Counted from the first letter of the stretch, positions 1,266-19,107 are shown. The stretch: DNA of 24,085 nucleotides from Acidimicrobiales bacterium (GCA_025358985.1 JANYHQ010000491.1:1-24085); one strand, 5' to 3'. Notes: generated from the sequence alone by a model not told the origin. Translations and numbers: made by a program.

Positions 1266-1423
1266 GCGTTCACCTCGGCCTGCTTCAACTTGAAGTCTCG
1301 GATGAGCCGAGCCCGAAGGCTCGGGCAGTGATGCACTGGCGGGAACGACAGGGCCAACGGGCTGCGGTAGACCGTAGGGCAATGGTCGCAAACCCACACT
1401 TGAATGGCTGCATTGTCTTTCAT
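1262..1423 (-). CDS. Small putative Zn-ribbon protein (53 aa; not in ORF track)
   Basis: MKDNAAIQVWVCDHCPTVYRSPLALSFPPVHHCPSLRARLIRDFKLKQAEVNA. ATGA overlaps at both ends fill the gap between neighbours exactly. CxxC plus HxC. Confidence 0.65.
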   Translation of the reverse strand: MKDNAAIQVWVCDHCPTVYRSPLALSFPPVHHCPSLRARLIRDFKLKQAEVNA

Positions 1424-2097
1424 GACATCACCACTCCGGCGCTGTTCGGGTTGAAGCCCTCGGGCCAGATGGTCGCATAGTTGGCGTCGGCGCCGTCCAG
1501 GTTGGCGCCGTACAGGTTGACGTAGCGCAGGTTGGCGTAGCGCAGGTTGGCGCCGTACAGGTTGGCGCCGTGCAGGTTGGCGTCGTCCAGGTTGGCGTAG
1601 CGCAGGTTGGCGTAGCGCAGGTTGGCGACTGCGCCGGCCCTGACGAGTGCCACAACGTCGAAGCAGTCAACGTCGATCGCCCACGGGACCCGATGCTTGC
1701 CAGTCGTCTTTCCCCTAGCCAGGTCGGTAGGGTAGACGAGGGCATGACCGACACAGTGGGCGAGTGACTCAACGACACCCGTCGTGGCCGCCCCGATACC
1801 AGCATCTGTGACAAGGCATAGCCCGTCGCCTTCCGTCTCGGGACACGAGCCATAGTTCGACTCGTCCCAGTCGGATGCCTCGTGGAGCACCGGGACGTCG
1901 TGGTCGCCGTTGACGATCGGCCAGTAGTAGCCGCCGTAGCTGGTTCCGTCGACTTGGGTCACCTTCCAGCCGACCTTTAGGTCGTGGCCTTTGGTGACCT
2001 CGGGGTAGGCGAGTTGTGCGCCCAGAATGTATTGCTCGTGCCAATAGGTCGAGAATTCTGCGACCTTGGCCCGATGTGATTCTGATTCGGATGTCAT
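1420..2097 (-). CDS. Pentapeptide-repeat protein with an N-terminal domain of unknown function (225 aa)
   Basis: C-terminal A(N/D)Lxx repeats (ANLRY ANLRY ANLDD ANLHG ANLYG...) ending in ATIWPEGF. Start placed at ATG 2097 behind a GAGAGGGAA RBS. Confidence 0.85.
   Translation of the reverse strand: MTSESESHRAKVAEFSTYWHEQYILGAQLAYPEVTKGHDLKVGWKVTQVDGTSYGGYYWPIVNGDHDVPVLHEASDWDESNYGSCPETEGDGLCLVTDAGIGAATTGVVESLAHCVGHALVYPTDLARGKTTGKHRVPWAIDVDCFDVVALVRAGAVANLRYANLRYANLDDANLHGANLYGANLRYANLRYVNLYGANLDGADANYATIWPEGFNPNSAGVVMS
1498..1627. repeat. 15-bp tandem repeat encoding the pentapeptide repeats
   Basis: Nine occurrences of CAGGTTG(G/A)CG at a 15-bp period from 1498 to 1618. Confidence 0.95.
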
Positions 2098-2110
2098 AAT
2101 TTCCCTCTCT

Positions 2111-2190
2111 GGCTGTAGGGTAGATGTGTCTTTGATGGGATATCTTATGCCCACCGTGCGAGCCATAGTTTCCTATGGCTCGAGGCGCTA
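2111..2190 (-). promoter_or_regulatory. Repeated structured early leader, copy E1
   Basis: Minus strand: TAGCGCCT-CGAGCCATAG-GAAA-CTATGGCTCG-CAC-GGTGGG-N10-CCCATC...CATCTACCCTACAGCC, then RBS and ATG 2097. Confidence 0.8.
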
Positions 2191-3607: not shown

Positions 3608-4522
3608 TCAGGCGGCCATTAGGACCCTTTCCGCAACCTGGGCGACCAGGTAGTCGCAAGCTGCTTGGGCTTTGCTCGCAACCGTCCAGAGGAGTGCGGG
3701 GGTCTCTTTCAACATGCCGCACCAGTTCTTGAGATACGCAGCGTGATCGGTTCGGGCTACCGTGTCGATACCGATACGGGCGCAAGTGAAGGCTGCGCCA
3801 AGTTCGGCAACGAGCTCTTCAGCTGCGTACTCGTTGTCCCCGAAACGCTTACCGTAGACCCTCGCAAGTCGGTCCTTGTGGCCAGTCCAGTGCGTCAGCT
3901 CGTGTGCCAGTGTTGCGTAGGCGTGCTCGGAAGTGTCGAACTGGTCGAACGCTGGCATGTGCACCTGGTCGGTCGCCGGCTGGTAGAAGGCACGATTACC
4001 GCCCCAGTGCACTTCTGCCGGCACTGCATCAAAGAACGCTTCAGCCTTGGCGTCACGTTCCAGTTGCGTCGGCTGTACGGTAGATGGCTCTTCCGGTGCT
4101 CCGTCGACCTGGTCACGGTTGAAGACCACGAAACCCTTGTAGAAGCCACCAGAAGACCGCAGAGACGTCAATGTGACGTCTTCCCCGGTCTTCTCGTCTT
4201 TGACCGTAATCGTGTCGCCGGTATTCGACGGCTTGGGCGACCAGAAGACCAGGTGCGTACCCTTCTCGCCAGTGCGGACGGTTGCGCCGACTGTCTGCCA
4301 CTGTTTGTAGGTTGCCCATTTCGAGCAGGTGTAGCCTTTCGTCGCACCGAAGTAGGCGAGTACCAGGACGTTTCCGCCCGAATACTCTTTGCCTGTCGTA
4401 GCGTTGCTCGGAAACCCTCCGTCGGCAATCTTGCGCCACGGCATCGCCCAGGTATCCGCACCCTCTTCCATCTGTTCGACCAGCCGCTTCACTACGTCAG
4501 TCATCACCTCATCGGCTCTCAT
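3608..4522 (-). CDS. ardC: ArdC-like antirestriction/ssDNA-binding protein (DUF1738 N-domain plus zincin-like MPTase domain; 304 aa)
   Basis: WAMPW, PSNATTGKEYSGGNVLVL, WATYKQWQ, VRTGEKGT, FVVFNRDQVDG, AFYQP..DQVHMP, HELTHWTGH..RLAR, YAAEELVAELGAAF, HAAYLKNW: the typical ArdC motif series. Start at ATG 4522. Confidence 0.92.
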   Translation of the reverse strand: MRADEVMTDVVKRLVEQMEEGADTWAMPWRKIADGGFPSNATTGKEYSGGNVLVLAYFGATKGYTCSKWATYKQWQTVGATVRTGEKGTHLVFWSPKPSNTGDTITVKDEKTGEDVTLTSLRSSGGFYKGFVVFNRDQVDGAPEEPSTVQPTQLERDAKAEAFFDAVPAEVHWGGNRAFYQPATDQVHMPAFDQFDTSEHAYATLAHELTHWTGHKDRLARVYGKRFGDNEYAAEELVAELGAAFTCARIGIDTVARTDHAAYLKNWCGMLKETPALLWTVASKAQAACDYLVAQVAERVLMAA

Positions 4523-4548
4523 GGTTCTCTCTCCGTTTCGTTTCGTTT

Positions 4549-4621
4549 GACTGTCGGGTAGATGGTGATGCAAGTGCACACCGTGCGAGACAGGGACTAT
4601 CGCCCCTGTCTCGTGGCGCTA
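4549..4621 (-). promoter_or_regulatory. Repeated structured early leader, copy E3
   Basis: Minus strand: TAGCGCCA-CGAGACAGGG-GCGATAGT-CCCTGTCTCG-CAC-GGTGTGC-ACTT-GCATCACC-ATCTACCCGACAGTC, then AAACG repeats and ATG 4522. Confidence 0.8.
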
Positions 4622-5532: not shown

Positions 5533-6239
5533 ACACCCGGGTGTATAAATTTGAGTGGAGACTATAATGGGAAGGTCAACCTATTGTCGGCCGGACATTT
5601 CTGTAGGGGGACAGTAACCCGTCTTCCTGTCCGACCTGGTGACCGGGAGTGCTGTACGAAAACTGTGTTGGCCGGCGGTGCCGGCCGGTCAACCGGTTTT
5701 GGGGGCCGTAAACCGTTTCTCGAGAAACGGGTCCTTAAATGACTTGCCCCGAGAGGGGCAAGTTGGACGGCCGGAGACGGCCGTGTGGTAGTGCACTGTG
5801 TACTTTACTTTAATCGGGAATACTTTACTGTAATTAGGTGAACTTTCCGCCTGGCGGCTCCAAGTTCACCGTCTAGGGGGACGTCTCCGTCCGGAGACGG
5901 ACCTATTTCCCCCCCACCGGGATGCTCACTACTCCGGTCCCGCTAGGTTTAGCGTCTCAGCGTTCGACGTTTTTCTGTGTACTCCACCAGGCCACCAAGG
6001 CCTGGGTTGTGTAGGGCCGGTCGGTATCGCACCTGTGGGCTCGCCTACACTTGAACACACCGTCTGACGGCTGAACTCCCGGTGGTAAGCCGGTGGGAGG
6101 TTCACACTCCACACCTCGTGTCACGCTGAGGTTGCGCCCCTTGCGGGGTGGTTGAATTGTCCTACATAGACCCCCGGGAGCGCCCGAGCCTCGCCGTGCG
6201 GGGCTGGGACCCGGGCTCTGCTCCCGGGACCTATGTAGG
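5533..6239. other. Non-coding block packed with inverted repeats (candidate origin/packaging region or structured RNA)
   Basis: At least 11 palindromes or stems, e.g. 5533-5544, 5670-5686, 5713-5730, 5742-5763, 5767-5784, 5837-5870, 5889-5902, 6009-6050, 6072-6104, 6161-6239. No convincing ORF with an RBS. Confidence 0.6.
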
Positions 6240-6275
6240 GAATCATGCCATCTCTTCCGGAGGGCTCCTGTGTCA

Positions 6276-6282
6276 GGGGGTC
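6276..6282 (+). promoter_or_regulatory. GGGGGTC late-unit motif upstream of terminase
   Basis: GGGGGTC followed by TGTAGGAG and ATG 6291. The same motif precedes six other late units. Confidence 0.5.
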
Positions 6283-6290
6283 TGTAGGAG

Positions 6291-8168
6291 ATGCCTACCC
6301 GAAAGCCTGCCGCTGACAGGGCGCCCGACAAGTCGTGGGCGTCGAAGCCGAAAGAGAACCGTTTCCGGGAAGCGTTGAAACGGATCGACGCCGGTATGCC
6401 GGTGGCGACCGCTGCCCGTTCGATGGGCTTGTCCCGTTCCCAGGTGAACGTCCGGCTGAAAGTCGCTCGGGATGAGAGGGCGGCAGCCCAGGGGCGTGCC
6501 GCCGACAGTCTGGCCGGCAAGGCCAACTTGACGCAGAACCGGACGGCCGGGCCGCTCGACGACCAGAAGATGCGGGTGTTGCCGTTCGACGACTTCGACC
6601 AGAAGTATTTCGGGACGCTGGTCTGCCCGGATTGTGGCGTCCACCACGAGACCCCCGGGTTTCACACCGAGATCGCCGACGCAGTGCTCGACCCTGACAT
6701 CAAGCGTCTGCTCATCAACATCCCTCCGTACCACAGCAAGTCGGCACTGGTGACCGTCAAGTCGACGGTGTACGAGCTGGTCTGCAACCCGAACGGCCGG
6801 CACCTCATCGTCTCGGCTTCGCAAGACTTTGCGAAGGCCTTCCTCTATTCGATCAAACAGTGGCTGACCAACCCCGAACTGTACGAGGGTGCCGGCGGCA
6901 ACCTGATCGACGACTACGGCCCGTTCTTCAATGACACGTCGACCGACACGCAGACCAAGATGTACATCGCTGGGCGTATGAGCTCGGAGAAGGACCCGTC
7001 CGTTCTCGCTCTCGGCATCGGCAACCAGATCTACGGTCGGCGTGCCGACCGGATCATCTTCGACGACATTGCCACGCTGGAGAACCAGCGCAACCCCGAG
7101 ATGGTCATCAAGCAGATGGAGTGGATCGACAAGCAGGCGCTGAGCCGTATCGGCCGCACCGGCAAGGCGATCTGGGTCGGCACCCGCATCCGTCCCGGCG
7201 ACATCTACACCGGGCTGCAGGACCGCACCGGGTACAAGATCATCAAGTACCCGTGCATCCTCGACGAGGAAGCCGAGTCGACCCTCTGGCCGGACCATTT
7301 CCCGTACCCGGACGCCTCGCTGCGTCGAGCCGAGATGAGGCCGGAAGAGTGGCAGCTCGTCTACCAGAACGTTGACACGCCCGGGCTCGGCTCCTCCTTC
7401 CCGGCCGAAGTGATCGAAGAGTGCAAAGACCGGGAGCACGTCATCGGACAGGTTGACCCGGCATGGAAGCTGTTTGTCGGCATCGACCCGGCGGGCGGCG
7501 GGAAGCAGTCGGGCTTCACGGCGCTGATCCTGCTCGGCTGGGACCGTGACAAGCAGGAGCTCCACCTCGTCGACATGGTCAACGCCCGGGCGTTGAAGGC
7601 CTACCAGTTGAAAGACCAGATCCTCGACTGGGCGGCGTCGTACAACCTGACGGAGATCCGGGTCGAGTCGAACGGTGTCCAGTCGCAGCTCGTCCAGTAC
7701 AACCAGGAGCTGATCAACCCGTTGACACAGCGGGGGATCAGGGTCGTGTCGCATCACACTCACTCGAACAAGTGGGACGCCCAGTTCGGTGTCGAGGCGA
7801 TCGCCCCGTGGTTCTACAACCAGAAGGTCTTCCTGCCGTGGGGGAACGCCGACTCGCAGAGGCGGGTCCAGACGTTGATCGAGCAGTTGGCCGGCTTCCC
7901 GATGGCGGAACGCTCCGACCTGGTGATGGCGTTCTGGTTCGCCTGGCTCGGCATTAAAGAATCGCAGGCCCGTCAGCCCGGGCCGATGTACGAGAACCGG
8001 AAGATGCCGGCCTTCGTCCGCAATCGGCGCCGCATCGCCGACATGCGCACCGGCAAGCTGTGGTCCCCGACCGACCCGAGCCGACCAGACTTCGGTCGCA
8101 TCGACGACACTCGACCGAGGAACGTCGCCAGGTTGGTGAACGTCCCGGGCCAGGTGAACACCTGGTGA
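6291..8168 (+). CDS. terL: Terminase large subunit with N-terminal HTH (625 aa)
   Basis: Walker A-like INIPPYHSKS, Walker B RADRIIFDD, coupling motif WVGTR, RNase H-like nuclease FVGIDPAGGG ... SDLVMAFWF. N-terminal HTH-like MPVATAARSMGLSRSQVNVRLK. Confidence 0.93.
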   Translation: MPTRKPAADRAPDKSWASKPKENRFREALKRIDAGMPVATAARSMGLSRSQVNVRLKVARDERAAAQGRAADSLAGKANLTQNRTAGPLDDQKMRVLPFDDFDQKYFGTLVCPDCGVHHETPGFHTEIADAVLDPDIKRLLINIPPYHSKSALVTVKSTVYELVCNPNGRHLIVSASQDFAKAFLYSIKQWLTNPELYEGAGGNLIDDYGPFFNDTSTDTQTKMYIAGRMSSEKDPSVLALGIGNQIYGRRADRIIFDDIATLENQRNPEMVIKQMEWIDKQALSRIGRTGKAIWVGTRIRPGDIYTGLQDRTGYKIIKYPCILDEEAESTLWPDHFPYPDASLRRAEMRPEEWQLVYQNVDTPGLGSSFPAEVIEECKDREHVIGQVDPAWKLFVGIDPAGGGKQSGFTALILLGWDRDKQELHLVDMVNARALKAYQLKDQILDWAASYNLTEIRVESNGVQSQLVQYNQELINPLTQRGIRVVSHHTHSNKWDAQFGVEAIAPWFYNQKVFLPWGNADSQRRVQTLIEQLAGFPMAERSDLVMAFWFAWLGIKESQARQPGPMYENRKMPAFVRNRRRIADMRTGKLWSPTDPSRPDFGRIDDTRPRNVARLVNVPGQVNTW

Positions 8169-8186: not shown

Positions 8187-8417
8187 ATGGTCTTCACTTC
8201 ACACGCAGAGGCGAAGGCGGCTGCCGAGGCTGCCGACTGCTCTTTCATCGGTTTCGGTCCTGAGGCCGGCAAGTTCACCGGCTACGTGCTGGTCGACGCT
8301 GACGCCGACCCGATCGCCTGCCGCAACGTGGCTTTCGAGGCCATGCGGGGACGCCCCATCGATCGCCGAGAGGAACTCCTCGTGAGCCTCGTGGAGGCCC
8401 GCAGTGCTGAACACTGA
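8187..8417 (+). CDS. Hypothetical protein (76 aa) between terminase and portal
   Basis: Fills the intergenic gap, follows the motif and overlaps the portal start. Confidence 0.7.
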   Translation: MVFTSHAEAKAAAEAADCSFIGFGPEAGKFTGYVLVDADADPIACRNVAFEAMRGRPIDRREELLVSLVEARSAEH

Positions 8418-10179
8418 CGATCTGCCGGCGATCTACGCCGCCTTCCGCACACGCTGGAAGAACCGGGACAACCGAATGTTGATCATGCAAGACGTGGTGA
8501 AAGGGACGGTCCTGTCGACGATTCCCGACGACACCGACCTCCAGAGCACGTCGCCGAACCTGATCCAGGTCGCCCTGGAAGACACCGCCGAGTCGGCGGC
8601 GATCATGCCGTCGTTCCGGGTGATCCCCCCGACACAGGATGGCGCCTCGAAGAAGATCGCCGAGAAGATGGAGAAGATCCTGCTCGGCTACATGGACCGT
8701 GCCGGCGGGGAACTCTTCCTCGTCCGTAGCTTCCTGGAGCTCGCCGCCTACGGCTTCTTCGCCCCGGCCGCCTTCATGGACACCGAGGTCGGCAACCCTC
8801 GCCTCGATCTTCGGCCGGCGGTCGGGTGCTACCCGGAACCCGACTGGAAGCCTGGCATGGCGGTCCGCAAGTGCCTGTTCGCCCGCTCGATCTTCTTCTC
8901 GCAGCTCCCCCCAGAGTACCAGGCGATGGCCAAACCGTGGGCGGCCTCTCGGGATTCGGCGATCGTCAACAACCAGCGCCACGTCATCCTGATCGAATAC
9001 TTCGACGAAGACGAACAGGTCATCGCCCTGTTGAGCACGTCGGCCTACGGGTCGGCGCTCAACATGCGAGCCGAAGGCCTGCCGATGATCCTGGAGCGCT
9101 TCCAGCACGACTACAAGATGTGCCAGGTCACCGTCGGCCAGCGCCCAACGCTGGACGGCGAACCCCGAGGCCAGTTCGATCAGGTCGTCGCCCCGATGGA
9201 GGCCCACTCCCGTCTGATGGCAATGGCCATCGACTACGCCGACCAGAGCGTCTATTCGGACATCTGGGTGAAAGAGCCGATGGGCGAGATCCCGTTCGGT
9301 GGTGGCGGCATCATCCAGCTCGGCCCGAACGGTGCCATCGGTCGTGTGCCGCCGGCCGTGTCCAGCCTGTCGCTGTTCCAAGAGCTCGACCAGTTGATGA
9401 ACACGATCCACCTCGGTGGCCGCTGGCCGAAGTCCCGCCCCGGCGAGATCGATCAGGCGATCGCTTCGGCGAAGTTCTTGGAGACCTCGGTCGGCGTGAT
9501 GAACACCGCCCTTCGGACGTACCACTTCATCATGAAGTACGCTCTGGAGCGCATTCTGCTCGTCATGCTGAAGATGGACAAGGAGCACGGCAGCCCCACC
9601 TCGGTCGCTCGTGGCGTGCTGCGCAACCAGGAGTTCGTCGAAGAGTACGACCCGTCGGTCGACATCGACCTGTCTTACAAGGTGAGGATCGAGTATGGCC
9701 TCGGGCTCGGGCGTGACCCGAGCCAATCCGCCGTTCTTCACATCCAGTACGCCCAGGCCGGGATGATCTCGAAAGAGTTCGTCCAAGAGTCGATTGAGGG
9801 CGTCTCCGATGTCGAGCGGGAACGGCGTCGCATCGACGTCGAGAAGCTGACCGACATGATGTTCGGCAAGCTGATGCAAGGCGTACAGCAGGGCACCGTG
9901 TCCGATTCTGCCCTCGTCGAGATTGCGGCCGCTCGCCAGCAGGGCGACCAGATGTTCGACATCTTCAAGAAGTACATCGTCGACCCGCAGACGAAAGCCC
10001 AAGCCACAGGGATCACGTCTGGGATCGATGGGTCACTGCAGCAGCCGGGCGGCCCCCCGGCCGCTGACGTGCCCGGACTGACCCCGCCACCTCCGCCGAG
10101 CATGGTGCAAGGCATGGCGAGCATGAGCATCCCGACGGGCGGGCGAGGCAACTTCATCGGCACCCGGACAGGAGGCTGA
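8404..10179 (+). CDS. Portal (head-tail connector) protein (591 aa)
   Basis: Position after TerL, size, GGAGG RBS with GTG start. The LDGEPRGQFDQVV segment and helical C-half resemble actinophage podovirus-type portals. Pro-rich C-terminal tail. Confidence 0.8.
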   Translation: MLNTDDLPAIYAAFRTRWKNRDNRMLIMQDVVKGTVLSTIPDDTDLQSTSPNLIQVALEDTAESAAIMPSFRVIPPTQDGASKKIAEKMEKILLGYMDRAGGELFLVRSFLELAAYGFFAPAAFMDTEVGNPRLDLRPAVGCYPEPDWKPGMAVRKCLFARSIFFSQLPPEYQAMAKPWAASRDSAIVNNQRHVILIEYFDEDEQVIALLSTSAYGSALNMRAEGLPMILERFQHDYKMCQVTVGQRPTLDGEPRGQFDQVVAPMEAHSRLMAMAIDYADQSVYSDIWVKEPMGEIPFGGGGIIQLGPNGAIGRVPPAVSSLSLFQELDQLMNTIHLGGRWPKSRPGEIDQAIASAKFLETSVGVMNTALRTYHFIMKYALERILLVMLKMDKEHGSPTSVARGVLRNQEFVEEYDPSVDIDLSYKVRIEYGLGLGRDPSQSAVLHIQYAQAGMISKEFVQESIEGVSDVERERRRIDVEKLTDMMFGKLMQGVQQGTVSDSALVEIAAARQQGDQMFDIFKKYIVDPQTKAQATGITSGIDGSLQQPGGPPAADVPGLTPPPPPSMVQGMASMSIPTGGRGNFIGTRTGG

Positions 10180-10180
10180 C

Positions 10181-10603
10181 ATGGCTGATATCCCGGATAT
10201 CACTCAACTTCCGGGTTCTGGCTCGGTGAGCAAGCCGGATTCTGGCACCTATGGTGACGTGACCGCCCTCCAGGACCTGAAGAAGGGGACGGGCCTCGGT
10301 GAGGCCCCGCCAGGGCCTCCCGGCCCGGACGTGTCGACAATGCCGGGCAGTGCCCAGATCAAGCCGTCGAGCGGCCCGTTCGGGCTCCCTTCGGCGATCA
10401 CCGCACCGACGCAGCAGCCGGACACGCCGGTCGGCACGCCCCTGGCGGCAGCCCCGGTGAACCCGGTCGCTCAAGCCGGCGCCCCGAACCAGCAGCGCCT
10501 GGCGTTCCTCGACATGCTGGCCCGCAACCCCGACGTGTCGGACACGACCCGTGAGTGGGCGCAGACGGTGATGGCCAAGCTGATCCAAGCGACGAGGCAA
10601 TGA
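10181..10603 (+). CDS. Pro/Gly-rich portal-adjacent virion protein (140 aa)
   Basis: AGGAGG RBS. N-terminal GTYGDVTALQDL motif, low-complexity middle, helical C-terminus. Coupled to the next gene by ATGA. Confidence 0.75.
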   Translation: MADIPDITQLPGSGSVSKPDSGTYGDVTALQDLKKGTGLGEAPPGPPGPDVSTMPGSAQIKPSSGPFGLPSAITAPTQQPDTPVGTPLAAAPVNPVAQAGAPNQQRLAFLDMLARNPDVSDTTREWAQTVMAKLIQATRQ

Positions 10604-13494
10604 CCGACATCCCGGCCCAGATCCCGCAGCAACAATCGGAGGTGAGTCTCGCCGACGGTGCTGCCGCCCTGCCGCCGATCGTCTCGTCGCCGCCCGAGGA
10701 GCCATCGCAGCCGTTTCTGACCAGTCCGGTCCCGGTCCCGCAGGGGCAGGTGTCCAACGTCGAGCAGGCCACGCCTGCCGACTGGCATCCGAACGACCCG
10801 GTTCGGCGAGGCATCGCCGCCGGTCATATCGGCGTCTACGCCAGCAAGCAGCCCGGCGGGCTTGCCGATGCAAAGCAGCACTGGGACACGTTCGGCAAGA
10901 TCGCTGACGGCGGGATGATCCCGAGCACGGGCGACACCGCCGAGACCATGCGGATCTGGAAGAAGTTCAAGGCGAACCCGGAGAGGTTGAAGCCCGACGA
11001 GTCGGCTGCCCTTCTCAATGCGGTGAGCCAGGTCGGCGCAGCCACGGCAGGCTCACCCGATCTGCAGTTCGACCCGGTTGCCCGGGTGAGATCGGTCGGT
11101 GCCGGGGGTGAAGTCAAGGTCGCCTATCCCGCAACGACTCATGTCAGGGACCTGGCGCTTCAACCCCTGGCACCCTCCGGCGTCGAGCGGATGCGGACGC
11201 TGGCACACCTCGGCGATGGTGCCACGAAAGACGTCCCCCCTCAGGATCTCCTGGCCCCTTTCCTCGGGCTCGACACGAACCATTCGACACCCGACGTCGC
11301 CAAGTTGAACGAGGTCGTGGCCGGTCTGGCCAACGAACTCGGTAGCGAGCCGCAGCGGGTCCGTGCTCAGATCGCTGCCGGCTGGCAGCGGCTTCGCACC
11401 CCGACACAACCGTGGGAACGCCCGTTCGCCGTTCGTGCCGGCGGGGTGAACCCGGCCGAGGAGGCCCTCACCGACGGGCTTTCGATGAACCTGGTCAACG
11501 CCATGAAGGGAGGGGTGAATGTCCTCGACTTCACGACGGAGGGTGAGCCGGCCATTTCCGTCCAGCCGGGCGGTGGCCTGGCCGTGTCGGCGCCACCGTC
11601 GGAACGCAACGCCCGACTCCTCCGGCACCTGTACCCCGCCTTCTCGAAGGGCGGGATCACCGCATGGCTTCCCGGCGCCCCCGCCTCAACCGAGAACGCA
11701 TCGAAGTTGCCCGGTGCCGTCTACAACGACTTCTTCCTCCGGGCCTCCGGCGGCCATCCGCTGTTCAAGCCCGGAACCCACATCGTCTACGATGCCTCCG
11801 ACCCGAAGCAACCCGGACAGGATCTCGGGCCGGTCCTGACACAGGGACCGGCACTGAACATGGACCGGCTCAAGTCCGCCGAGATCGACCCGGGCAAGCT
11901 ACCCGACCTCATCAAGTCGAACGCCTGGGCACTGATCCCGGGCGACAACTCGACGAAGGCCTCGCTCATCAGGAGCGGGTACAACCCGATTACCCACAAA
12001 GTGAGTGAATCTACTCACTTTGTGGTATTCGGGATCACGCCCGAACAGGCCCGGGCGCACACTGCCGGCGAGATCGTGACCAACGCTGGGACGTACTCGA
12101 AGGACGGGTTCAGGCCCGGTGACGGGCCGACGTTCGAAAAGGCCGACGACGGCCAACAGTCGGTGACCCGCCTTGCCGGTGGCGACGTTCACTGGCATCT
12201 CGGCGGGGTCGATCGTTCGGCCGAGGCTGAGGCACCCCCGACGACCGAGGTGACCACGACCCGGGCGCAGCGCCGGGCCGTGGAGGTGACCGGAGACCTG
12301 CAGTCGACGATCTCCGACCTGGAGAACCAGGGCGCCCAGAACCTCCACGTCTACGCTCACCGCAACCAGCTCGACGGGTTCCACACCGCCTGGGAGCACG
12401 TCTACACCGACGGGACGAACACGACCGGCGTTCTGGCCAAGAAGGCCTCAGAGGCCGCTCACGCCGGCCCGGTGTTCGTTCGCAGCACCGACGGACTCCC
12501 CGACACCGTGACGCCCCCGCAGACGGCTCGGCGTGGCACGTCCGGGTACATAATGAACGGCGTCCAGGTGATCACGACGGACAACATCAAGAAGCTGACC
12601 GACCTGAAGGCCGGCGGCCTCCGCCTCGACGGCAGCGCCATCGTTCCGGTCGACCAGGGCGGTGACGTGTCGTTGAGTGGCGGCAAGATCGTCGTGCACG
12701 ACCCGACGCCGGCTGCCGCCCGGCTGATTGCCACCGCCAAGGCAACCGGGCTTCCCGACTCCCAATTTCACGCGCCGAGCGCTGGACGTTTGACGCCGAA
12801 CACCCCGGCCTCGATGGTGACAATCTCGGGGGACCGTGTCCAGCCGCTGCGACAGACCCGGCCGAGCCCCGACTGGGCGAGCCGGTTCGGGATCGTGTTC
12901 GACCCGGCGTGGCGGACACAGGACGGTGTGCAAGAGCTCGACCCGAAGTTGTCCGCCCATCTGGCCAACGTGTACGACGCCTTCCAGTCACAGCACCAGG
13001 CTGCGACCAGCCTGTGGGATCTCCAACGGATCGCCGTGACTGGTGGTTACTCGAAGACGCCCGCCTACACCGAGTGGGGCGGGCTTGGTGGTGGCATCGG
13101 TCTGTCGGCGAAGCACTGGCAGGACCCCGGCGCCCTCACTGACCACGTTGCACGGTTGCAGGACAATGGAACGATTGTTCCAAATATCATACCAACTCCG
13201 GCCTATTTCGTTACACATGAGCTCGGGCACGTCGTCCACGGTGCCTTGCAGTTCGGAACCGATGGCTCCGGGGCTCGTAAAGAACTGTTGGCGATCAGGA
13301 GTTCGTTGGGAAAGGACGGGATCACACGGGGCCTCTCGGCCCAGGCCTGGGCCTCCCCCGAGGAGATGGTCGCCGAGGCGGTCGCCGAAGGCGTGCTGGC
13401 GAGCAACCCTCGCCCGCTGGCCAGGGAAATCTTGAACACCGTTCAAGCGGCGTACACTCGTGTTGCTGATGCCCGAACGAAGACGGAGTGGTGA
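10600..13494 (+). CDS. Large probable virion protein with C-terminal zincin metallopeptidase domain (964 aa)
   Basis: ATG 10600 overlaps the upstream stop. HELGH (HExxH, 13216-13230) plus downstream EEMVAEAVAE form a gluzincin-like arrangement. Confidence 0.75.
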   Translation: MTDIPAQIPQQQSEVSLADGAAALPPIVSSPPEEPSQPFLTSPVPVPQGQVSNVEQATPADWHPNDPVRRGIAAGHIGVYASKQPGGLADAKQHWDTFGKIADGGMIPSTGDTAETMRIWKKFKANPERLKPDESAALLNAVSQVGAATAGSPDLQFDPVARVRSVGAGGEVKVAYPATTHVRDLALQPLAPSGVERMRTLAHLGDGATKDVPPQDLLAPFLGLDTNHSTPDVAKLNEVVAGLANELGSEPQRVRAQIAAGWQRLRTPTQPWERPFAVRAGGVNPAEEALTDGLSMNLVNAMKGGVNVLDFTTEGEPAISVQPGGGLAVSAPPSERNARLLRHLYPAFSKGGITAWLPGAPASTENASKLPGAVYNDFFLRASGGHPLFKPGTHIVYDASDPKQPGQDLGPVLTQGPALNMDRLKSAEIDPGKLPDLIKSNAWALIPGDNSTKASLIRSGYNPITHKVSESTHFVVFGITPEQARAHTAGEIVTNAGTYSKDGFRPGDGPTFEKADDGQQSVTRLAGGDVHWHLGGVDRSAEAEAPPTTEVTTTRAQRRAVEVTGDLQSTISDLENQGAQNLHVYAHRNQLDGFHTAWEHVYTDGTNTTGVLAKKASEAAHAGPVFVRSTDGLPDTVTPPQTARRGTSGYIMNGVQVITTDNIKKLTDLKAGGLRLDGSAIVPVDQGGDVSLSGGKIVVHDPTPAAARLIATAKATGLPDSQFHAPSAGRLTPNTPASMVTISGDRVQPLRQTRPSPDWASRFGIVFDPAWRTQDGVQELDPKLSAHLANVYDAFQSQHQAATSLWDLQRIAVTGGYSKTPAYTEWGGLGGGIGLSAKHWQDPGALTDHVARLQDNGTIVPNIIPTPAYFVTHELGHVVHGALQFGTDGSGARKELLAIRSSLGKDGITRGLSAQAWASPEEMVAEAVAEGVLASNPRPLAREILNTVQAAYTRVADARTKTEW

Positions 13495-13598
13495 TGTGTT
13501 GGAAGTGCTTCCTCCGGCAGTACCCGCTCGGCGAGTACGCCTTCCCGGTCGCCCTCCCGGCACCGCCGAAGCCGAAGGAGAAGCCACGTGATCGCTGA
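13494..13598 (+). CDS. Small CxxC peptide (34 aa; not in ORF track)
   Basis: TGATG overlap with the zincin gene, GGAG RBS. MCWKCFLRQYPLGEYAFPVALPAPPKPKEKPRDR. Confidence 0.45.
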   Translation: MCWKCFLRQYPLGEYAFPVALPAPPKPKEKPRDR

Positions 13599-13761
13599 AG
13601 CCCCGTGCAACACCTGCAAGTGGGCGTCGCTGGCAGCCGACGGCTCGGCCGCAACATGCGACGCCTTCCCGAAAGGTATCCCTCAGATGTTTCTCCGTGG
13701 CGAAAACGACCACTCGAAGCCCGTGCCGGGCGACGGCGGGATCACGTACCAGCCCGCTTGA
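13588..13761 (+). CDS. Small Cys3-His protein, candidate immunity/partner of the zincin domain (57 aa; not in ORF track)
   Basis: GAAGGAGA RBS, GTG start. MIAEAPCNTCKWASLAADGSAATCDAFPKGIPQMFLRGENDHSKPVPGDGGITYQPA fits a CxxC...C.AFP.GIP.....G..DH..P.PGD.GI pattern I recall from proteins downstream of phage zincin/MuF-type genes. Confidence 0.75.
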   Translation: MIAEAPCNTCKWASLAADGSAATCDAFPKGIPQMFLRGENDHSKPVPGDGGITYQPA

Positions 13762-13765
13762 CCTT

Positions 13766-13772
13766 GGGGGTC
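13766..13772 (+). promoter_or_regulatory. GGGGGTC late-unit motif upstream of tRNA
   Basis: TGACCTT-GGGGGTC-CATAT, then tRNA base 1 at 13778. Confidence 0.55.
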
Positions 13773-13777
13773 CATAT

Positions 13778-13850
13778 AGCGCAGTGGAGCAGTGGTCAGC
13801 TCGGCGGGCTCATAACCCGTAGGTCCCCGGTTCGAATCCGGGTTGCGCCA
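13778..13850 (+). tRNA. tRNA-fMet (initiator, anticodon CAT)
   Basis: Full cloverleaf: acceptor AGCGCAG/TTGCGCC with a 1:72 mismatch, D-stem GAGC/GCTC (A11:U24), anticodon arm GCGGG-CTCATAA-CCCGT (three consecutive G-C pairs), T-arm CCCGG-TTCGAAT-CCGGG, discriminator A. The 3' end reads CCG, so CCA is not fully encoded. Confidence 0.95.
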
Positions 13851-13858
13851 CCGGACGT

Positions 13859-13865
13859 GGGGGTC
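13859..13865 (+). promoter_or_regulatory. GGGGGTC late-unit motif
   Basis: GGGGGTC-TACATAC-ATG(13873). Confidence 0.5.
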
Positions 13866-13872
13866 TACATAC

Positions 13873-16800
13873 ATGGCTGTCTCTCCTTCGCTCATTGATG
13901 CGTCCGGGCAGGCGCCGGTCACTTCGGCCATCGACGCCTCACAGGTCGACCAGAACCTGAAGGCGATCACGGCCATCCACAGCTCGTGGAGGTTGCCGAC
14001 ACTCCCCGACGAGGTGAAGCTCGACCTGGCTTCGCAGCCGGGCGTGACGCCCGACCATCTCAACAACTTCCTGTACGGCGTCGAAGCCGACCTGACGGGC
14101 GGGCAGCCGCAACCGCCGGCCTACCAGGCACCGAGCCTGCCCGACTTCTCGACGTTCGACAAGACGAGGGCGATCGTCGCCGGCATCGCCGGTACGAAGG
14201 CGCCGACCGTCGTTGACGGCTCGGCGGTCGAGCGCTGGAAGATGGACGCCATCGATAAGGGGTATCTGCCGGCGCCAAAAGATGGCGTGATCGACAACTC
14301 GTGGAGTCCCGAGTTCGACACGATCCGCAAAGGCATGGCCTACGACGAGTACAACACACGGCAGCGGGGCGACCGCCCCGGCTCGGTCCCTTTCTCGAAG
14401 ATGGTCAACCAGCTCTACAAGTGGACATCTCCGACCGGACTGCTTGCGGCCGCAACGAACCTCGATCTGTTCTGGAACTTCGGTGCCATCGGCAAGGAGT
14501 TCAACACCTGGGGCGACAAGTGGCGCCAACTGGGCAAGTCGAAGAACCCGTTCGACTTCGCCAAGCACCTCGTCGATGCCCTCACCGGCCCGATCGACGA
14601 CATCCTCATGCCGATCGCCAACTGGGCGATGCTCGCCTCGGGGGTCGGTGAGGCCTACAACTTCGCCAAGGTGGCGTATGCCGGCGAGAAAGCCTTCGCT
14701 GGCGCCGAAGCCGTCGAAGGCCTTTACAAGGCCTCCGGGTTCCTCAACTTCACCAAAGGCTACGACGCCGTCTCCGACGTCGAGCGCATGAAGGAAGCCT
14801 CCGGGCTGGCCTTGCGTCTCGGCAAGTCCAGCAACGGGGCGGTTTCTGGAATAGGCGATGCGATGGGAGCATGGCGGAACCTCGACTCGGTGGCGACATC
14901 GAAGAAGTTCCTGCAGGTCGGCATGCGGGCCGGGCTCACCTCCCAGGCCGAGGATCTCCTCCCGGGCTACCAGGGTGGCCATTCGCTCGGCGACCTGGCC
15001 CCCGTCAAGGACGCCGTCACCTGGGCTCAGACCAACCCGCTGTTCGTCGCCGGCTCCGGCGTTGCCGAGCTCTTCTTCACGCCCTATTCAACATTCCGCC
15101 CCGGTTCTTTCGTGAAGGGCGGCAAGAGCATCATCGGTGGCGCCGCCACGGCGCTCGGCACGACCGGGGGTAGGGCCGTCCTCGGTGGCGTGCTCGGTGC
15201 CGGCGTCGGGACGTGGCTCGGCCACGACACGGGCGACACGCTGGAAGGCGGGGCGATCGGCGCCCTCGGACTCGCTTCGGTGCCTCTGCTCGGCAAGGGC
15301 CTCCATTCGGTGGCCGCCGCAGCCGAAGGTGTGCCGCTCGCAAGCAAGATCCTGCCGAAGTCCGTCGGGACCGTCGGTGACTTCCTCCGCAACACGTCCT
15401 GGAAGCCGATGGCGGACAACAAGGAGCTGACCCTGGCGTTCCACAACGGGATGCTCAACACGCTCGACGGACAGGCCCTGACCGACTATCAGGCGGCCTT
15501 CGACGAGAAAGGCTTCCTTCACGCCTTCGCCCAGTATCACGGCGTCGATGAGGAGACGGCCGGCGCCTCGATGGGTTTCGTGGCGACCGCCGCAGCGATC
15601 GACCACATCGCTTCAAGCCAGGCCAAGGCCGGCGGGGCGAAGAACTGGCTGAAGGTCTACAGCGACGCCAAGAACAAGCTGATCGCCCAGACTCGCTCGT
15701 TCGATCTGAACAACATCGGAGCCCACACGATCGACGAGATTGCAATGGCCGCCTCGATGGGCGTCAACGGCCAGAAGAAAGAGTTCGCAACGCTTCGAGC
15801 CGCCTTCCAGCAGGACCCGTCGAAGGCGCTGGAGTTCGCCAGTGCCCACAACCGACAGGCCCAAGAGACCCTCCAGCAGCTTCTCTCGGTCGAAGCGACC
15901 CCGGACCTGAACCCCGACATTGCCTCCCAGCTGTTCGGCTGGAACGATCTGGGCGCCAAGGAACGTGCCGGCGTCCTGTCGAAGTACATCCCGCAAGTCA
16001 TGGATCACTTCGGCAACTGGCCGCAGTTCTCTGCTCGCACGAGCGAGATCCGCCAGGCCCTCCATGACGGGATGCTCGACGATGCGGTGTTCGACACGTA
16101 CAAGCTGCCTTCGGGTAAGGTGGTGCCGACCGTCAGGCCCCGGGACATTCCGGTCTCGGTGCTGCCGACCACTTCGCAAGAGATCAGTCAAGGCGTCAAC
16201 GACGCCGTGTTCCGGCTCCCCGAGACCGACATCACGAAGGTCACCTCCACCGGCAAGCTGGACGTGCTGGCACGGGCCGTCGACCCTTCGATCGGCCGGT
16301 TCACCGTCATGCGGGCAGACACGGCCGACAAGGGCCAGGTGCTCGGTATCCTCGCCGAGCTCAAGGAGCTGAAGGCGATCCACGAGATCTCCGCCCCGAA
16401 GCTGGACGTCCTTCGAGAGGCCACTGCCGCCCACGGCGAACTCACCGATCTGACCCGCCAGCAGTACGGCGACGTCATCAACTCGATGGTGAAAGGCAAC
16501 AGCTCCCAGAAGGAGATGCGCCGGCTCTACGACTTCGCCAAGCGTCAGGGCGCCTCTTTGTCTGACATGAAGAACTTCATGTCCGACACGATCGACACTG
16601 CCGTGAACGACCCTCGGCTCACCGACTGGCTGGGCATGTCGAAGGTCATCACCGGCGACCCGAAGCCCGGAGAGGCGATCGGCGCCGTCCTGTCGGGTCC
16701 GGCCGCCTTGAAGGCTCGCATCGTCGAACTACAGAAGAAGTCGCAGTTCACCGCCGCCCGCATCGATGGCGACAAGTTGCTCGCCGGGCTCGGCGAAGGC

Positions 16801-19107
16801 ACCCCCGAGTACGTGCGGATGCAGAACCATCTCGACTCGCTGGACCGTGACGGCTACAAGCTCGTGCACGGTGTCGAGTACCTCATGCCCGAAGACCTCG
16901 CTCACCACACCCCGGTCTTCGAGGACATCACCCGACGTCACCTGAACGCAGCGACGCTCGGCAACTTCTTCAAAGGCCGGGAGCCGGCCGTCGCCCGCTT
17001 CGACGAGGAGCGTCGCTCCCGTTCCATCCTGTTCAACAACCTCTCCAAGCAAGGCCTCTTCGACAAGGGCCTGAACGAACAGGACGCCACCAACATGTTT
17101 GAGGATCTCCATTCGATCCTCCGGTCGGAGCAGTCGTTGTCCGAGGAGGCTCGCACCAACGCAGCGACCGGCGGCTGGCTGAAGAAGCGGCTCGCTGGCA
17201 TCACCACGTCGATGACGCCGGTCACGATGGCAGACCTCGGTCGCACGTCGTGGCGCCGTGTCATCAAGGACTTCACCCCGGTGTACGGCGAGGAGGCGGC
17301 GAACGTTGCCGCCCAGTCGTTGCGTGAGATGCGCAACACCCAATTCAGGGACGTCGGGGTGTACGCCATCGAGGCGAAGCTGCGAACCAACAACCAACTC
17401 GCCGGAGCCTTGAAGGTCCTCTCGGGCACAGAGAACGGCGAAGGGTTCCTCGCCCGGTCGAGCACCGCCCGCAAGGTCGGTGCCGTTGCAGGCGGTATCT
17501 ACGGCGCCGAGACGTCCGACAACAAGGCCACCGGGGCGCTGGAAGGGGCGGCGATCGGTGCCGCCGCCGGCACGGTCGGCCAGGGCGCCCTGTCGCCCCT
17601 GTTCTCCAATGCCGAGAAGGCTTTCTCTGCATCGAAGTGGTTCCAGTACGGCTACCTCGCCGACGACGTCGCCGGCATGCGGGACACGATGCGTTTCACG
17701 CTCTCCCCATTCTTCGACCTGTCCCGCATGGTCAAGAGCCAGGAGCTGGGCCAGACCGCCGCCCCACTCAGGAACGACATCGGCGAGCGGATCGTGATGC
17801 CGCTCAACTCGTCCCCGAAGGCGATGAAGGCCCAGTGGGTAAAAGACGGGCTGACCAAGGAAGGGGCGGACCAGAAGTTCGCCACTGCTCAAGCCCGGTT
17901 CCAGGACCTGATGCGTGGCGGCAAGGGCGGCGTGGCCGACGACTTCCAAGCTACCGACAACCTCGCCAACTACTTCCAGCAGATCGGCATACTCGGCCAC
18001 AACCCGGGCGAATGGCAGGTCACCGCCTTCCAGCATCTCGTCGACCAGGGGATCAACCCGGAGAGGGCGGCCCAGGCTGCCCGGGGCATGTACACCTACG
18101 GTACGAGCGGACGGTCGGCCGCCGAGATGTCGGCCAACTTCCTCTTCTTCCCGTTCAGCTTCCAAAAGAAGGCCTACACGGCTCTCGCCCGATACCTGTC
18201 GGACGACATGTCGAGATCGGTGATCCTCCATGACGCCTTGAAGGGCTACGAGTTGCTCGATCAGAAGTACGACTTGAAGCGAATGTGGCACGACCACCTG
18301 CCGGCGCTGGAGAAGTTCCAGCAGTTGAACATGTTCGCCTACGGCGCTTCGCCCGGCAGGCTGGGCGGGATCAACCGGCCGTTCATCGAGCCGATTATGA
18401 ACATGGCCGCCAACTTGCACGGCAAGAGCGACTTCGTCCCCGGGATCTTTAACATGTTCAACCCGCAGGGCGTGCATATCGGCTCGGCCGCCGATGCGGC
18501 CAACATCAAGCACCTGACCGTCCAGCTTCTACCAGTCATCAACGACATCAACCACCTGCTCGGCTCTGGCGCAGAACAGGTCCATGCCTTGAGTTCGCCG
18601 AGCCGGCAGACCTACGCAGCGGACGCTGGCGACGGCTGGTCCGCCTGGGGGGCGTTCCGCAAGGACTTCGAGGCCAACCTGACCAAGCACGGCTACACGA
18701 TGAACGACCTCAGCCAGCCGTGGCTCGCCTCGACGAAACTGGCCTACGAGGCGAAGCGTGCCGAGATCGAACAGCAGTACCCGGGCTGGAAGGACTCCAG
18801 GGTGAAGTCGGCACAGAATAACGCAACGCTCAAGTTGGAACTCCAGGAACGGTTTGACAGGGTGGCGAACGGCAACGCCAGCCCCACTGATCTCGTCACC
18901 TACCAATTCAACCAGGCGGTGACCGCCGCCAAGGCCGACCTCAAGTTGCACGGCATCCCCGACTTCGTGGACGCCCCGTCGTCGGTTCGTAAGAACCTGA
19001 TCGACCAGGCGGTCGGCCTCGCTCGCCAGTTTCCCGAATGGCGGCAGATCTACGGCAAGTACTTCGAGCCTGAACTCGGCACGATCGAAGCAGAGGTAAA
19101 GGCATGA
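13873..19107 (+). CDS. Very large probable internal virion / DNA-ejection protein (1744 aa)
   Basis: Start at ATG 13873, because the track's TTG 13843 lies inside the tRNA. Ala/Gly-rich helical protein with two glycine-zipper-like hydrophobic segments and a C-terminal FLFFPFSFQKK motif. Lies in the morphogenesis operon. Confidence 0.65.
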   Translation: MAVSPSLIDASGQAPVTSAIDASQVDQNLKAITAIHSSWRLPTLPDEVKLDLASQPGVTPDHLNNFLYGVEADLTGGQPQPPAYQAPSLPDFSTFDKTRAIVAGIAGTKAPTVVDGSAVERWKMDAIDKGYLPAPKDGVIDNSWSPEFDTIRKGMAYDEYNTRQRGDRPGSVPFSKMVNQLYKWTSPTGLLAAATNLDLFWNFGAIGKEFNTWGDKWRQLGKSKNPFDFAKHLVDALTGPIDDILMPIANWAMLASGVGEAYNFAKVAYAGEKAFAGAEAVEGLYKASGFLNFTKGYDAVSDVERMKEASGLALRLGKSSNGAVSGIGDAMGAWRNLDSVATSKKFLQVGMRAGLTSQAEDLLPGYQGGHSLGDLAPVKDAVTWAQTNPLFVAGSGVAELFFTPYSTFRPGSFVKGGKSIIGGAATALGTTGGRAVLGGVLGAGVGTWLGHDTGDTLEGGAIGALGLASVPLLGKGLHSVAAAAEGVPLASKILPKSVGTVGDFLRNTSWKPMADNKELTLAFHNGMLNTLDGQALTDYQAAFDEKGFLHAFAQYHGVDEETAGASMGFVATAAAIDHIASSQAKAGGAKNWLKVYSDAKNKLIAQTRSFDLNNIGAHTIDEIAMAASMGVNGQKKEFATLRAAFQQDPSKALEFASAHNRQAQETLQQLLSVEATPDLNPDIASQLFGWNDLGAKERAGVLSKYIPQVMDHFGNWPQFSARTSEIRQALHDGMLDDAVFDTYKLPSGKVVPTVRPRDIPVSVLPTTSQEISQGVNDAVFRLPETDITKVTSTGKLDVLARAVDPSIGRFTVMRADTADKGQVLGILAELKELKAIHEISAPKLDVLREATAAHGELTDLTRQQYGDVINSMVKGNSSQKEMRRLYDFAKRQGASLSDMKNFMSDTIDTAVNDPRLTDWLGMSKVITGDPKPGEAIGAVLSGPAALKARIVELQKKSQFTAARIDGDKLLAGLGEGTPEYVRMQNHLDSLDRDGYKLVHGVEYLMPEDLAHHTPVFEDITRRHLNAATLGNFFKGREPAVARFDEERRSRSILFNNLSKQGLFDKGLNEQDATNMFEDLHSILRSEQSLSEEARTNAATGGWLKKRLAGITTSMTPVTMADLGRTSWRRVIKDFTPVYGEEAANVAAQSLREMRNTQFRDVGVYAIEAKLRTNNQLAGALKVLSGTENGEGFLARSSTARKVGAVAGGIYGAETSDNKATGALEGAAIGAAAGTVGQGALSPLFSNAEKAFSASKWFQYGYLADDVAGMRDTMRFTLSPFFDLSRMVKSQELGQTAAPLRNDIGERIVMPLNSSPKAMKAQWVKDGLTKEGADQKFATAQARFQDLMRGGKGGVADDFQATDNLANYFQQIGILGHNPGEWQVTAFQHLVDQGINPERAAQAARGMYTYGTSGRSAAEMSANFLFFPFSFQKKAYTALARYLSDDMSRSVILHDALKGYELLDQKYDLKRMWHDHLPALEKFQQLNMFAYGASPGRLGGINRPFIEPIMNMAANLHGKSDFVPGIFNMFNPQGVHIGSAADAANIKHLTVQLLPVINDINHLLGSGAEQVHALSSPSRQTYAADAGDGWSAWGAFRKDFEANLTKHGYTMNDLSQPWLASTKLAYEAKRAEIEQQYPGWKDSRVKSAQNNATLKLELQERFDRVANGNASPTDLVTYQFNQAVTAAKADLKLHGIPDFVDAPSSVRKNLIDQAVGLARQFPEWRQIYGKYFEPELGTIEAEVKA

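Follow-up and report, generated by a model that had tools for sequence, protein, structure and literature searches.

Phage proteins that are injected with the DNA set the first minutes of infection, and two kinds of described system are among the closest to the locus reported here. Of 191 MuF polymorphic toxins counted in temperate phages, 20% are metallopeptidases (Jamet et al., 2017, PMC5576092), and a precedent among the polyvalent proteins is gp47 of phage phi24B, for which a MuF-C metallopeptidase domain has been reported and which was detected in virions by proteomics (preprint 10.64898/2026.04.10.717836). The window analysed here is an entire contig of 24,085 bp (JANYHQ010000491.1) from a metagenome-assembled genome (79% completeness) listed as Acidimicrobiales bacterium (GCA_025358985.1), and the gene in question encodes a protein of 964 aa that ends in a zincin-type metallopeptidase domain and is followed by two very small genes. 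We regard it as slightly better than an even chance that a podovirus-type clade uses the 964-aa protein as portal-proximal, MuF-like cargo, accompanied by a small partner that is indifferent to the type of cargo. The features on which this reading depends are as follows.

10600..13494, + strand: gene for the 964-aa protein, a scaffold without a MuF domain (aa 1-738) plus a C-terminal zincin (from the open reading frame, ORF, and the starts of homologues)
12814..13491, + strand: zincin domain, aa 739-964, the last 226 residues (from invariant residues, an AlphaFold2 (AF2) model, Foldseek and a hidden Markov model (HMM))
13363-13365 and 13375-13377, + strand: codons of E922 and E926, candidate distal ligand residues (invariant in the alignment)
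13494..13598, + strand: micro-ORF for a 34-aa CxxC peptide (TGATG overlap with the stop codon of the large gene, GGAG upstream)
13588..13761, + strand: gene for a 57-aa Cys3-His protein (GTG start, AAGGAG upstream, 11-nucleotide overlap with the 34-aa ORF)

Judged from its residues (HExxH plus ExxxE), the 226-aa tail is predicted to be a gluzincin with its catalytic site intact. The HELGH motif lies at aa 873-877 (nucleotides 13216-13230), and the residues H873, E874, H877, S913, E922 and E926 do not vary among the 42 tails that were aligned. If the ExxAE helix of the M34 peptidases is taken as a guide, E926 is presumably the third zinc ligand. AF2 modelled aa 739-964 with confidence (predicted local distance difference test, pLDDT, 93.5) and Foldseek against the PDB returned the zincin fold: 4l7a (E 6e-4), a putative zinc peptidase from Bacteroides, came first, and M34-type catalytic domains and Pro-Pro endopeptidases followed; ESM Atlas features concurred with Foldseek on this point. 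The metallopeptidase end that the first-pass annotation had read from an HExxH...E pattern is therefore upheld by the HELGH motif, the invariant residues, the model and the fold. Against BFVD the best matches were phage proteins annotated as 'minor capsid', 'MuF-like minor capsid' or 'lethal factor', with E values down to 9e-7. An HMM of the tail also matched three bona fide MuF proteins at their C-termini (E 9.5e-18, 4.7e-17 and 9e-17), and hhalign against the tail of the MuF protein of Flavobacterium phage lotta8-1 gave a probability of 97.2% (E 3.2e-11), the motif common to the zincin here and the MuF tails being HExGH ... S-x-x-A ... E-x-x-A-E. A tblastn search of cultured phages with MuF zincin tails gave too few matches for a census.

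The remainder of the protein had no match in the databases searched. The reading frame is open from 10555 to 13494, and the true start is taken to be ATG 10600, which overlaps the stop codon of the preceding 140-aa gene (ATGA) and gives a product of 964 aa, because all six close homologues (66-75% identity) begin at this position with MTDIP, MSDIP or MTDF. Neither the whole protein nor its thirds matched Pfam, PHROGs or NCBIfam (TIGR01641 included), and Pfam matches to Phage_Mu_F or Phage_min_cap2 were also absent from 38 members of the family. The scaffold (aa 1-738) was modelled with confidence (pLDDT 88.2), and Foldseek of this model against BFVD found no match and no MuF fold (best E 0.085). 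No cysteine was seen by eye in the 964-aa translation, so the NCRC motif of MuF proteins is absent. The first-pass annotation, which had noted an uncharacterised scaffold without a MuF signature, was thus correct in this respect by Pfam, NCBIfam and Foldseek alike. No match to the 964-aa protein was found by tblastn in 50,697 phage records, and phmmer and profile searches of PDB sequences picked up only the generic HExxH stretch (profile E >= 0.16). Besides the zincin there is no recognisable domain in the window's protein.

An exhaustive HMMER search gave a family set of 51 representatives. The full-length relatives are nearly all of 900-1650 aa and carry HExGH about 100 residues before the C-terminal end. 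Within the zincin domain 42 relatives could be aligned at 21-81% identity and all of them keep the HExxH motif and the distal Glu residues; relatives lacking HExxH are short ones of 136-881 aa. Variation is seen instead in the central part of the protein, where inserts recognised among 38 members comprise DUF7178 (25 of the 38), DUF3293 (13 of the 38), one ParB-like domain and one S-adenosylmethionine (SAM) lyase. The zincin tail is thus constant throughout the family while the middle gains and loses accessory domains, and the 964-aa protein of the window is a stripped-down form of a polyvalent-style family. The first-pass annotation had proposed an exchangeable tip and named invariance of the C-terminal domain among relatives as the finding that would speak against it; as invariance is what was found (catalytic residues kept in 42 of 42 relatives, variation in the middle), neither the exchangeable tip nor the expected variability of C-termini among homologues can be maintained.

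The two small genes had been described as tightly coupled, and the overlaps and Shine-Dalgarno sequences listed above agree with this. In the 57-aa protein the motif is CxxC-x13-CxAFPxGIP-x9-H, in which the C, A, P, G, I, P and H residues are invariant in the alignment; it conforms to the family pattern CxxC ... CxA[FY]PxGIP ... H of proteins some 55-75 aa long. The protein matches phrog_33375 (E 8e-5) and no Pfam family, and belongs to a family of 1177 homologues (E <= 1e-3), all of them nameless and mostly viral. Some of these (P0066-P0069) are tandem duplications with two units in 137-157 aa. A natural fusion of zincin and Cys3-His protein was sought among six longer homologues, which proved to be four tandem duplications and two single domains with an unrelated tail. 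The Cys3-His gene comes after the large gene in all eight of the relatives' loci examined (denoted here by L numbers), including those of only about 25-30% identity. Homologues of the CxxC peptide, of the form MC(W/F/I)xC...FxFP, occur in L005, L018 and L019, which are the nearest lineages, and none was found in L002, L008, L009 or L010. The idea that both small genes are conserved together with the zincin consequently holds for the 57-aa gene (8 of 8 loci) and not for the 34-aa one, which is a real but lineage-specific coupled micro-ORF. No promoter or terminator consensus was found between the large gene and the small ones. Extra small genes tend to gather in the interval between the zincin gene and the gene of about 1750 aa that follows: in L002 an acidic, Ala-rich 149-aa protein is encoded downstream of the Cys3-His gene (13060-13734), in L005 an 81-aa ORF (8348-8593) separates the CxxC peptide from the Cys3-His gene, and L018 has called genes of 86, 122 and 72 aa in the same interval (5901-7320).

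The Cys3-His gene could be followed well beyond this family. Downstream of the MuF-zincin gene of phage lotta8-1 there is a member of the small family, and in Brevibacillus phage Jenst one lies one gene after the zincin-tailed gp075, annotated as a virion structural protein. The first impression from these two phages was of a cassette of zincin and partner, and this was overturned by a census in which IMG/VR was scanned with a profile of the small protein and the 80 best loci were kept. A locus was counted if a same-strand ORF of >=150 aa ended just before the small gene, which left 71 loci. Pfam searches of 68 of the upstream ORFs gave Phage_Mu_F in 39, ADPrib_exo_Tox in 21, ART in 8, Acb1 in 1 and LPD3 in 1. 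The classes below were assigned to the 71 loci with our own iterated HMMs (ART, ADP-ribosyltransferase).

MuF plus zincin: 21 of 71 loci
MuF plus ART: 15 of 71 loci
MuF only, with another tail: 14 of 71 loci
ART without recognised MuF: 7 of 71 loci
zincin without recognised MuF: 5 of 71 loci
mixed, ART and zincin: 2 of 71 loci
nothing recognised: 7 of 71 loci

The Cys3-His protein therefore accompanies cargo-carrying portal-proximal proteins in general and not the zincin specifically. Because its family follows ART-tailed and other MuF proteins about as often as zincins, the census weakens the earlier proposal that it is the cognate inhibitor of the zincin. The nearest IMG/VR relatives of the window's small protein outside its own family include ART-linked ones, and on the tree of small proteins, which is poorly resolved, no fewer than 11 changes are required to place the ART and zincin labels, from which it follows that the small family is not split into two cargo-specific halves. 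When the labels were shuffled the mean was 17.8 changes and only 0.2% of shuffles were as low as 11; this residual clustering of labels is what kinship alone would produce. It was also observed that counter-defence enzymes use the same slot, a cargo of Acb1 (which counters the cyclic-oligonucleotide-based antiphage signalling system, CBASS) being followed by a Cys3-His gene, and an LPD3 cargo likewise.

The genes around the 964-aa gene form the late block of a phage, and its other features in the window, in order, are these.

6291-8168, + strand: large terminase, TerL (phrog_38, E 3e-82)
between the TerL and portal genes, + strand: 76-aa gene
8404-10179, + strand: portal, 591 aa (about 25% identity over about 90% of its length to Streptomyces podovirus portals)
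10181..10603, + strand: 140-aa conserved gene, with the portal gene upstream and the 964-aa gene downstream (weak phrog_8200 match only)
13778..13852, + strand: tRNA-Met (CAT), between the Cys3-His gene and the 1744-aa gene (ARAGORN)
13873..19107, + strand: 1744-aa gene, the next member of the conserved block of internal proteins
after the 1744-aa gene, + strand: 558-aa gene and then an SLT transglycosylase gene (SLT by Pfam)

The order TerL, about 76 aa, portal, about 140 aa, 964-aa type, Cys3-His, about 1750 aa, about 550 aa and SLT is strictly kept, and synteny of the whole block persists in relatives of only about 25-30% identity. From the position of its genes the block is best read as one of portal-proximal internal or ejection proteins. 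It should be noted that the 964-aa gene, to which the first-pass annotation had given the post-portal position, is the second gene after the portal: the place in a portal-proximal block is right, though not exact, as a gene of 138-148 aa occupies the intervening position, both here and in all of the relatives' loci that extend upstream of the large gene. The likely start of the 1744-aa gene is ATG 13873, since homologues begin at the equivalent Met; the TTG at 13843 given by the ORF finder was rejected as it overlaps the tRNA and fits the N-termini of the homologues less well than ATG 13873. The tRNA-Met is found in the same arrangement in L019 and is absent from L002, L003, L005, L008-L010 and L018. 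Two portal genes are unusual: that of L002 (7014-9578) encodes 854 aa as against 587-612 aa in the other complete loci, and that of L019 (809-2580) appears as two separate gene calls, of 151 and 439 aa, which could reflect an insertion or a frameshift. In the window a scan of part of the contig's genes, in what is an incomplete genome, identified no lysogeny gene. The phage probably belongs to an uncultured podovirus-type clade with an actinobacterial host, the host being suggested solely by the nearest cultured relatives. Further upstream lies an early operon on the minus strand with a gene (3608-4579, -) for a protein with ArdC-N and MPTase-PolyVal domains (Pfam E 2e-43 and 7e-28), a second zincin of the same phage that is probably unrelated to the 964-aa tail, and a pentapeptide-repeat protein is encoded at 1420-2166 (-).

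The codons just before the active site were noted in the first-pass annotation as AT-rich, and this is so.

13159..13218, + strand: 20 codons just before HELGH with low G+C at third positions (GC3), 0.35 as against 0.81 for the gene

This GC3 value is the lowest of 945 windows of the 964-aa gene; the second-lowest stretch of the gene is at 11986-12045 (0.55). The dip is also present in L002 and L008, weaker in L005 and absent in the distant L009 and L010. Conservation at synonymous sites in the patch is ordinary (0.58 against 0.49 overall, rank 168 of 939) and no match to a sigma-70-like promoter was found in 12900-13950, and on these two grounds the patch was for now rejected as a conserved nucleotide element or an internal promoter.

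We infer the functions of the 964-aa protein and its partners throughout, and the course of events that we favour is as follows. As has been proposed for MuF cargo and for polyvalent proteins, the 964-aa protein would be packaged near the portal and would leave the capsid with the DNA. The zincin might then act as an enzyme in the newly infected cell, a step to which we assign a little less than an even chance and which is suggested by its alternation with Alt-like ADP-ribosyltransferases at the ends of MuF proteins. It is less probable, and would suit both the invariance of the tail and the polyvalent relatives, for which reason it is given some weight, that the zincin cuts its own protein or the neighbouring giant internal proteins instead. 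The 57-aa protein, which is inferred to bind a single zinc through C7, C10, C24 and H42, would be made together with the cargo protein by translational coupling and is most likely a cargo-agnostic partner, such as a holdase or packaging adaptor, rather than a zincin-specific inhibitor. That it handles capsid-delivered cargo in general and in a zinc-dependent manner, whatever the tail and whatever the scaffold, is a more tentative suggestion that we would not rate as probable; such a handling factor would hold the cargo inactive or unfolded or load it at the portal. Several observations count against a cargo protein with an indifferent partner. Invariance of the tail across the clade fits a core morphogenetic or processing role no worse than an effector role, the fold matches of the zincin in the PDB are weak (E 1.5e-2 to 6e-4, TM 0.37-0.48) and the Pfam profile ATLF does not match it, the capsid genes lie beyond the end of the window, the census was taken from the side of the small protein only, and the clustering of ART and zincin labels on the tree leaves room for subfamilies matched to their cargo.

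This last point bears on the possibility that the genes are a toxin and immunity pair, in which the Cys3-His protein, possibly assisted by the CxxC peptide, would inhibit a toxic zincin and so shield the producing cell. The tight coupling and the strict co-occurrence of the Cys3-His gene within the 964-aa family would be expected of such a pair; small ORFs follow 89% of MuF toxin genes as against 25% of short MuF genes (Jamet et al., PMC5576092), and the labels on the tree are more clustered than shuffled ones. Immunity superfamilies that pair with several toxin types have been listed (Zhang et al. 2012, PMC3482391), and the small family might be a promiscuous one of this kind, like SUKH, with subfamilies that match different toxins. 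However, one compact family of 55 aa with the same invariant motif stands behind zincin, ART and unrelated tails alike, at least 11 switches of partner are required on its tree, and the zincin is invariant rather than polymorphic. Moreover the gene lies inside a late structural operon, and the scanned stretch offers it no promoter-like site, so that a lysogen could not be protected, and we consider immunity unlikely. We put no more trust in a morphogenetic or processing protease, in which the zincin would trim its own protein, the 1744-aa protein or other internal proteins, in the procapsid or after ejection, and the small protein would restrain it until assembly. Catalytic residues that are invariant throughout the clade, even in the minimal 964-aa form without accessory domains, are consistent with this, as are the polyvalent-like relatives with their DUF7178, DUF3293, ParB-like and SAM-lyase inserts; such a role was proposed by Iyer et al. 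for the metallopeptidases of polyvalent proteins, with P1 DdrB as a precedent (PMC5512222), and a capsid maturation protease is named in the annotation of one BFVD match. Against it, the zincin alternates at the ends of MuF proteins with ARTs, which are directed at the host, both then having the same small partner, and neither cleavage sites nor processed forms are known.

An SLT transglycosylase gene in the same block raises the further question of whether the zincin cuts peptidoglycan cross-links during ejection alongside that enzyme. Genes annotated 'peptidase' and 'glycosylase' occupy the corresponding position in phage Manuel, and the phi24B preprint (10.64898/2026.04.10.717836) suggested a wall-breaching role for gp47. 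The fold, however, resembles the M34 and PPEP protein endopeptidases and not the known folds of peptidoglycan peptidases, and the same tail is found on siphovirus and myovirus MuF proteins, where ARTs replace it, so we hold this role to be very improbable. A cargo protein with a cargo-agnostic partner is accordingly the reading that we retain.

As capsid-delivered cargo with a zincin tail is already known, what is new here, and well supported, is the non-MuF scaffold, the non-polymorphic tail and the partner without zincin specificity. An uncultured podovirus clade carries a zinc protease on a scaffold that matches no database, and the variable region of cargo proteins can be the middle instead of the tip. 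One small protein, very common among phages (more than 1000 homologues), accompanies cargo-carrying head proteins in general. Jamet et al. assumed that small ORFs located behind MuF toxin genes confer immunity, an assumption that the census touches on and to which it offers a testable alternative. If the small protein is indeed a handling factor, many assumed MuF immunity genes would not be immunity genes and the 964-aa family would reach the same packaging site by a second route that does without MuF.

Among cultured phages the nearest terminase and portal relatives (25-31% identity) are those of the Beephvirinae podoviruses of Streptomyces, such as phage Manuel (NC_048685). The gene order of Manuel is like that of the window (portal, small genes, a 1646-aa protein, peptidase, glycosylase, with the capsid gene much later), but its 1646-aa protein, gp10, has no similarity to either the 964-aa or the 1744-aa protein. 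Fold matches in the PDB were best for the M34 gluzincins (Pfam ATLF, PPEP-1/Zmp1, 4l7a), to which the nearest feature clusters in the ESM Atlas also belong, and they have the HExxH helix and the distal ExxAE helix in common with the zincin here; they differ from it in that identity is only 10-18%, TM is 0.37-0.48 and there is no Pfam match, and the modelled likeness would extend to the class of fold and say nothing of substrate. The phage large polyvalent proteins (PMC5512222), of which phi24B gp47 and P1 DdrB are examples that we liken to the window's protein by description, resemble it in their virion-gene context, their giant internal proteins and their podovirus type. This likeness runs through the relatives of 1100-1650 aa, in which DUF7178, DUF3293, ParB-like or SAM-lyase modules are combined with the zincin, whereas the window's own protein is minimal and has no Pfam LPD or MPTase-PolyVal match.

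A comparison can also be made with the MuF polymorphic toxins (PMC5576092). They differ from the locus described here in having a MuF domain, in that the tail here is invariant within the family and in that a 140-aa gene comes after the portal, and the Tyr of the SxYA motif is invariant in MuF-type tails and not conserved in the 964-aa family. Also unlike the cognate immunity proposed for MuF toxins, the family of small ORFs here is common to ART-tailed MuF proteins. In both systems a gene near the portal encodes a C-terminal enzymatic domain, the zincin being homologous to MuF tails, and small coupled ORFs (<150 aa; 34 and 57 aa in the window) lie directly downstream. By this analogy the zincin is a candidate equivalent of the type that Jamet et al. 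counted as the MuF-toxin 'metallopeptidase', and it may also be of the same type as the 'MuF-C metallopeptidase' of phi24B gp47.

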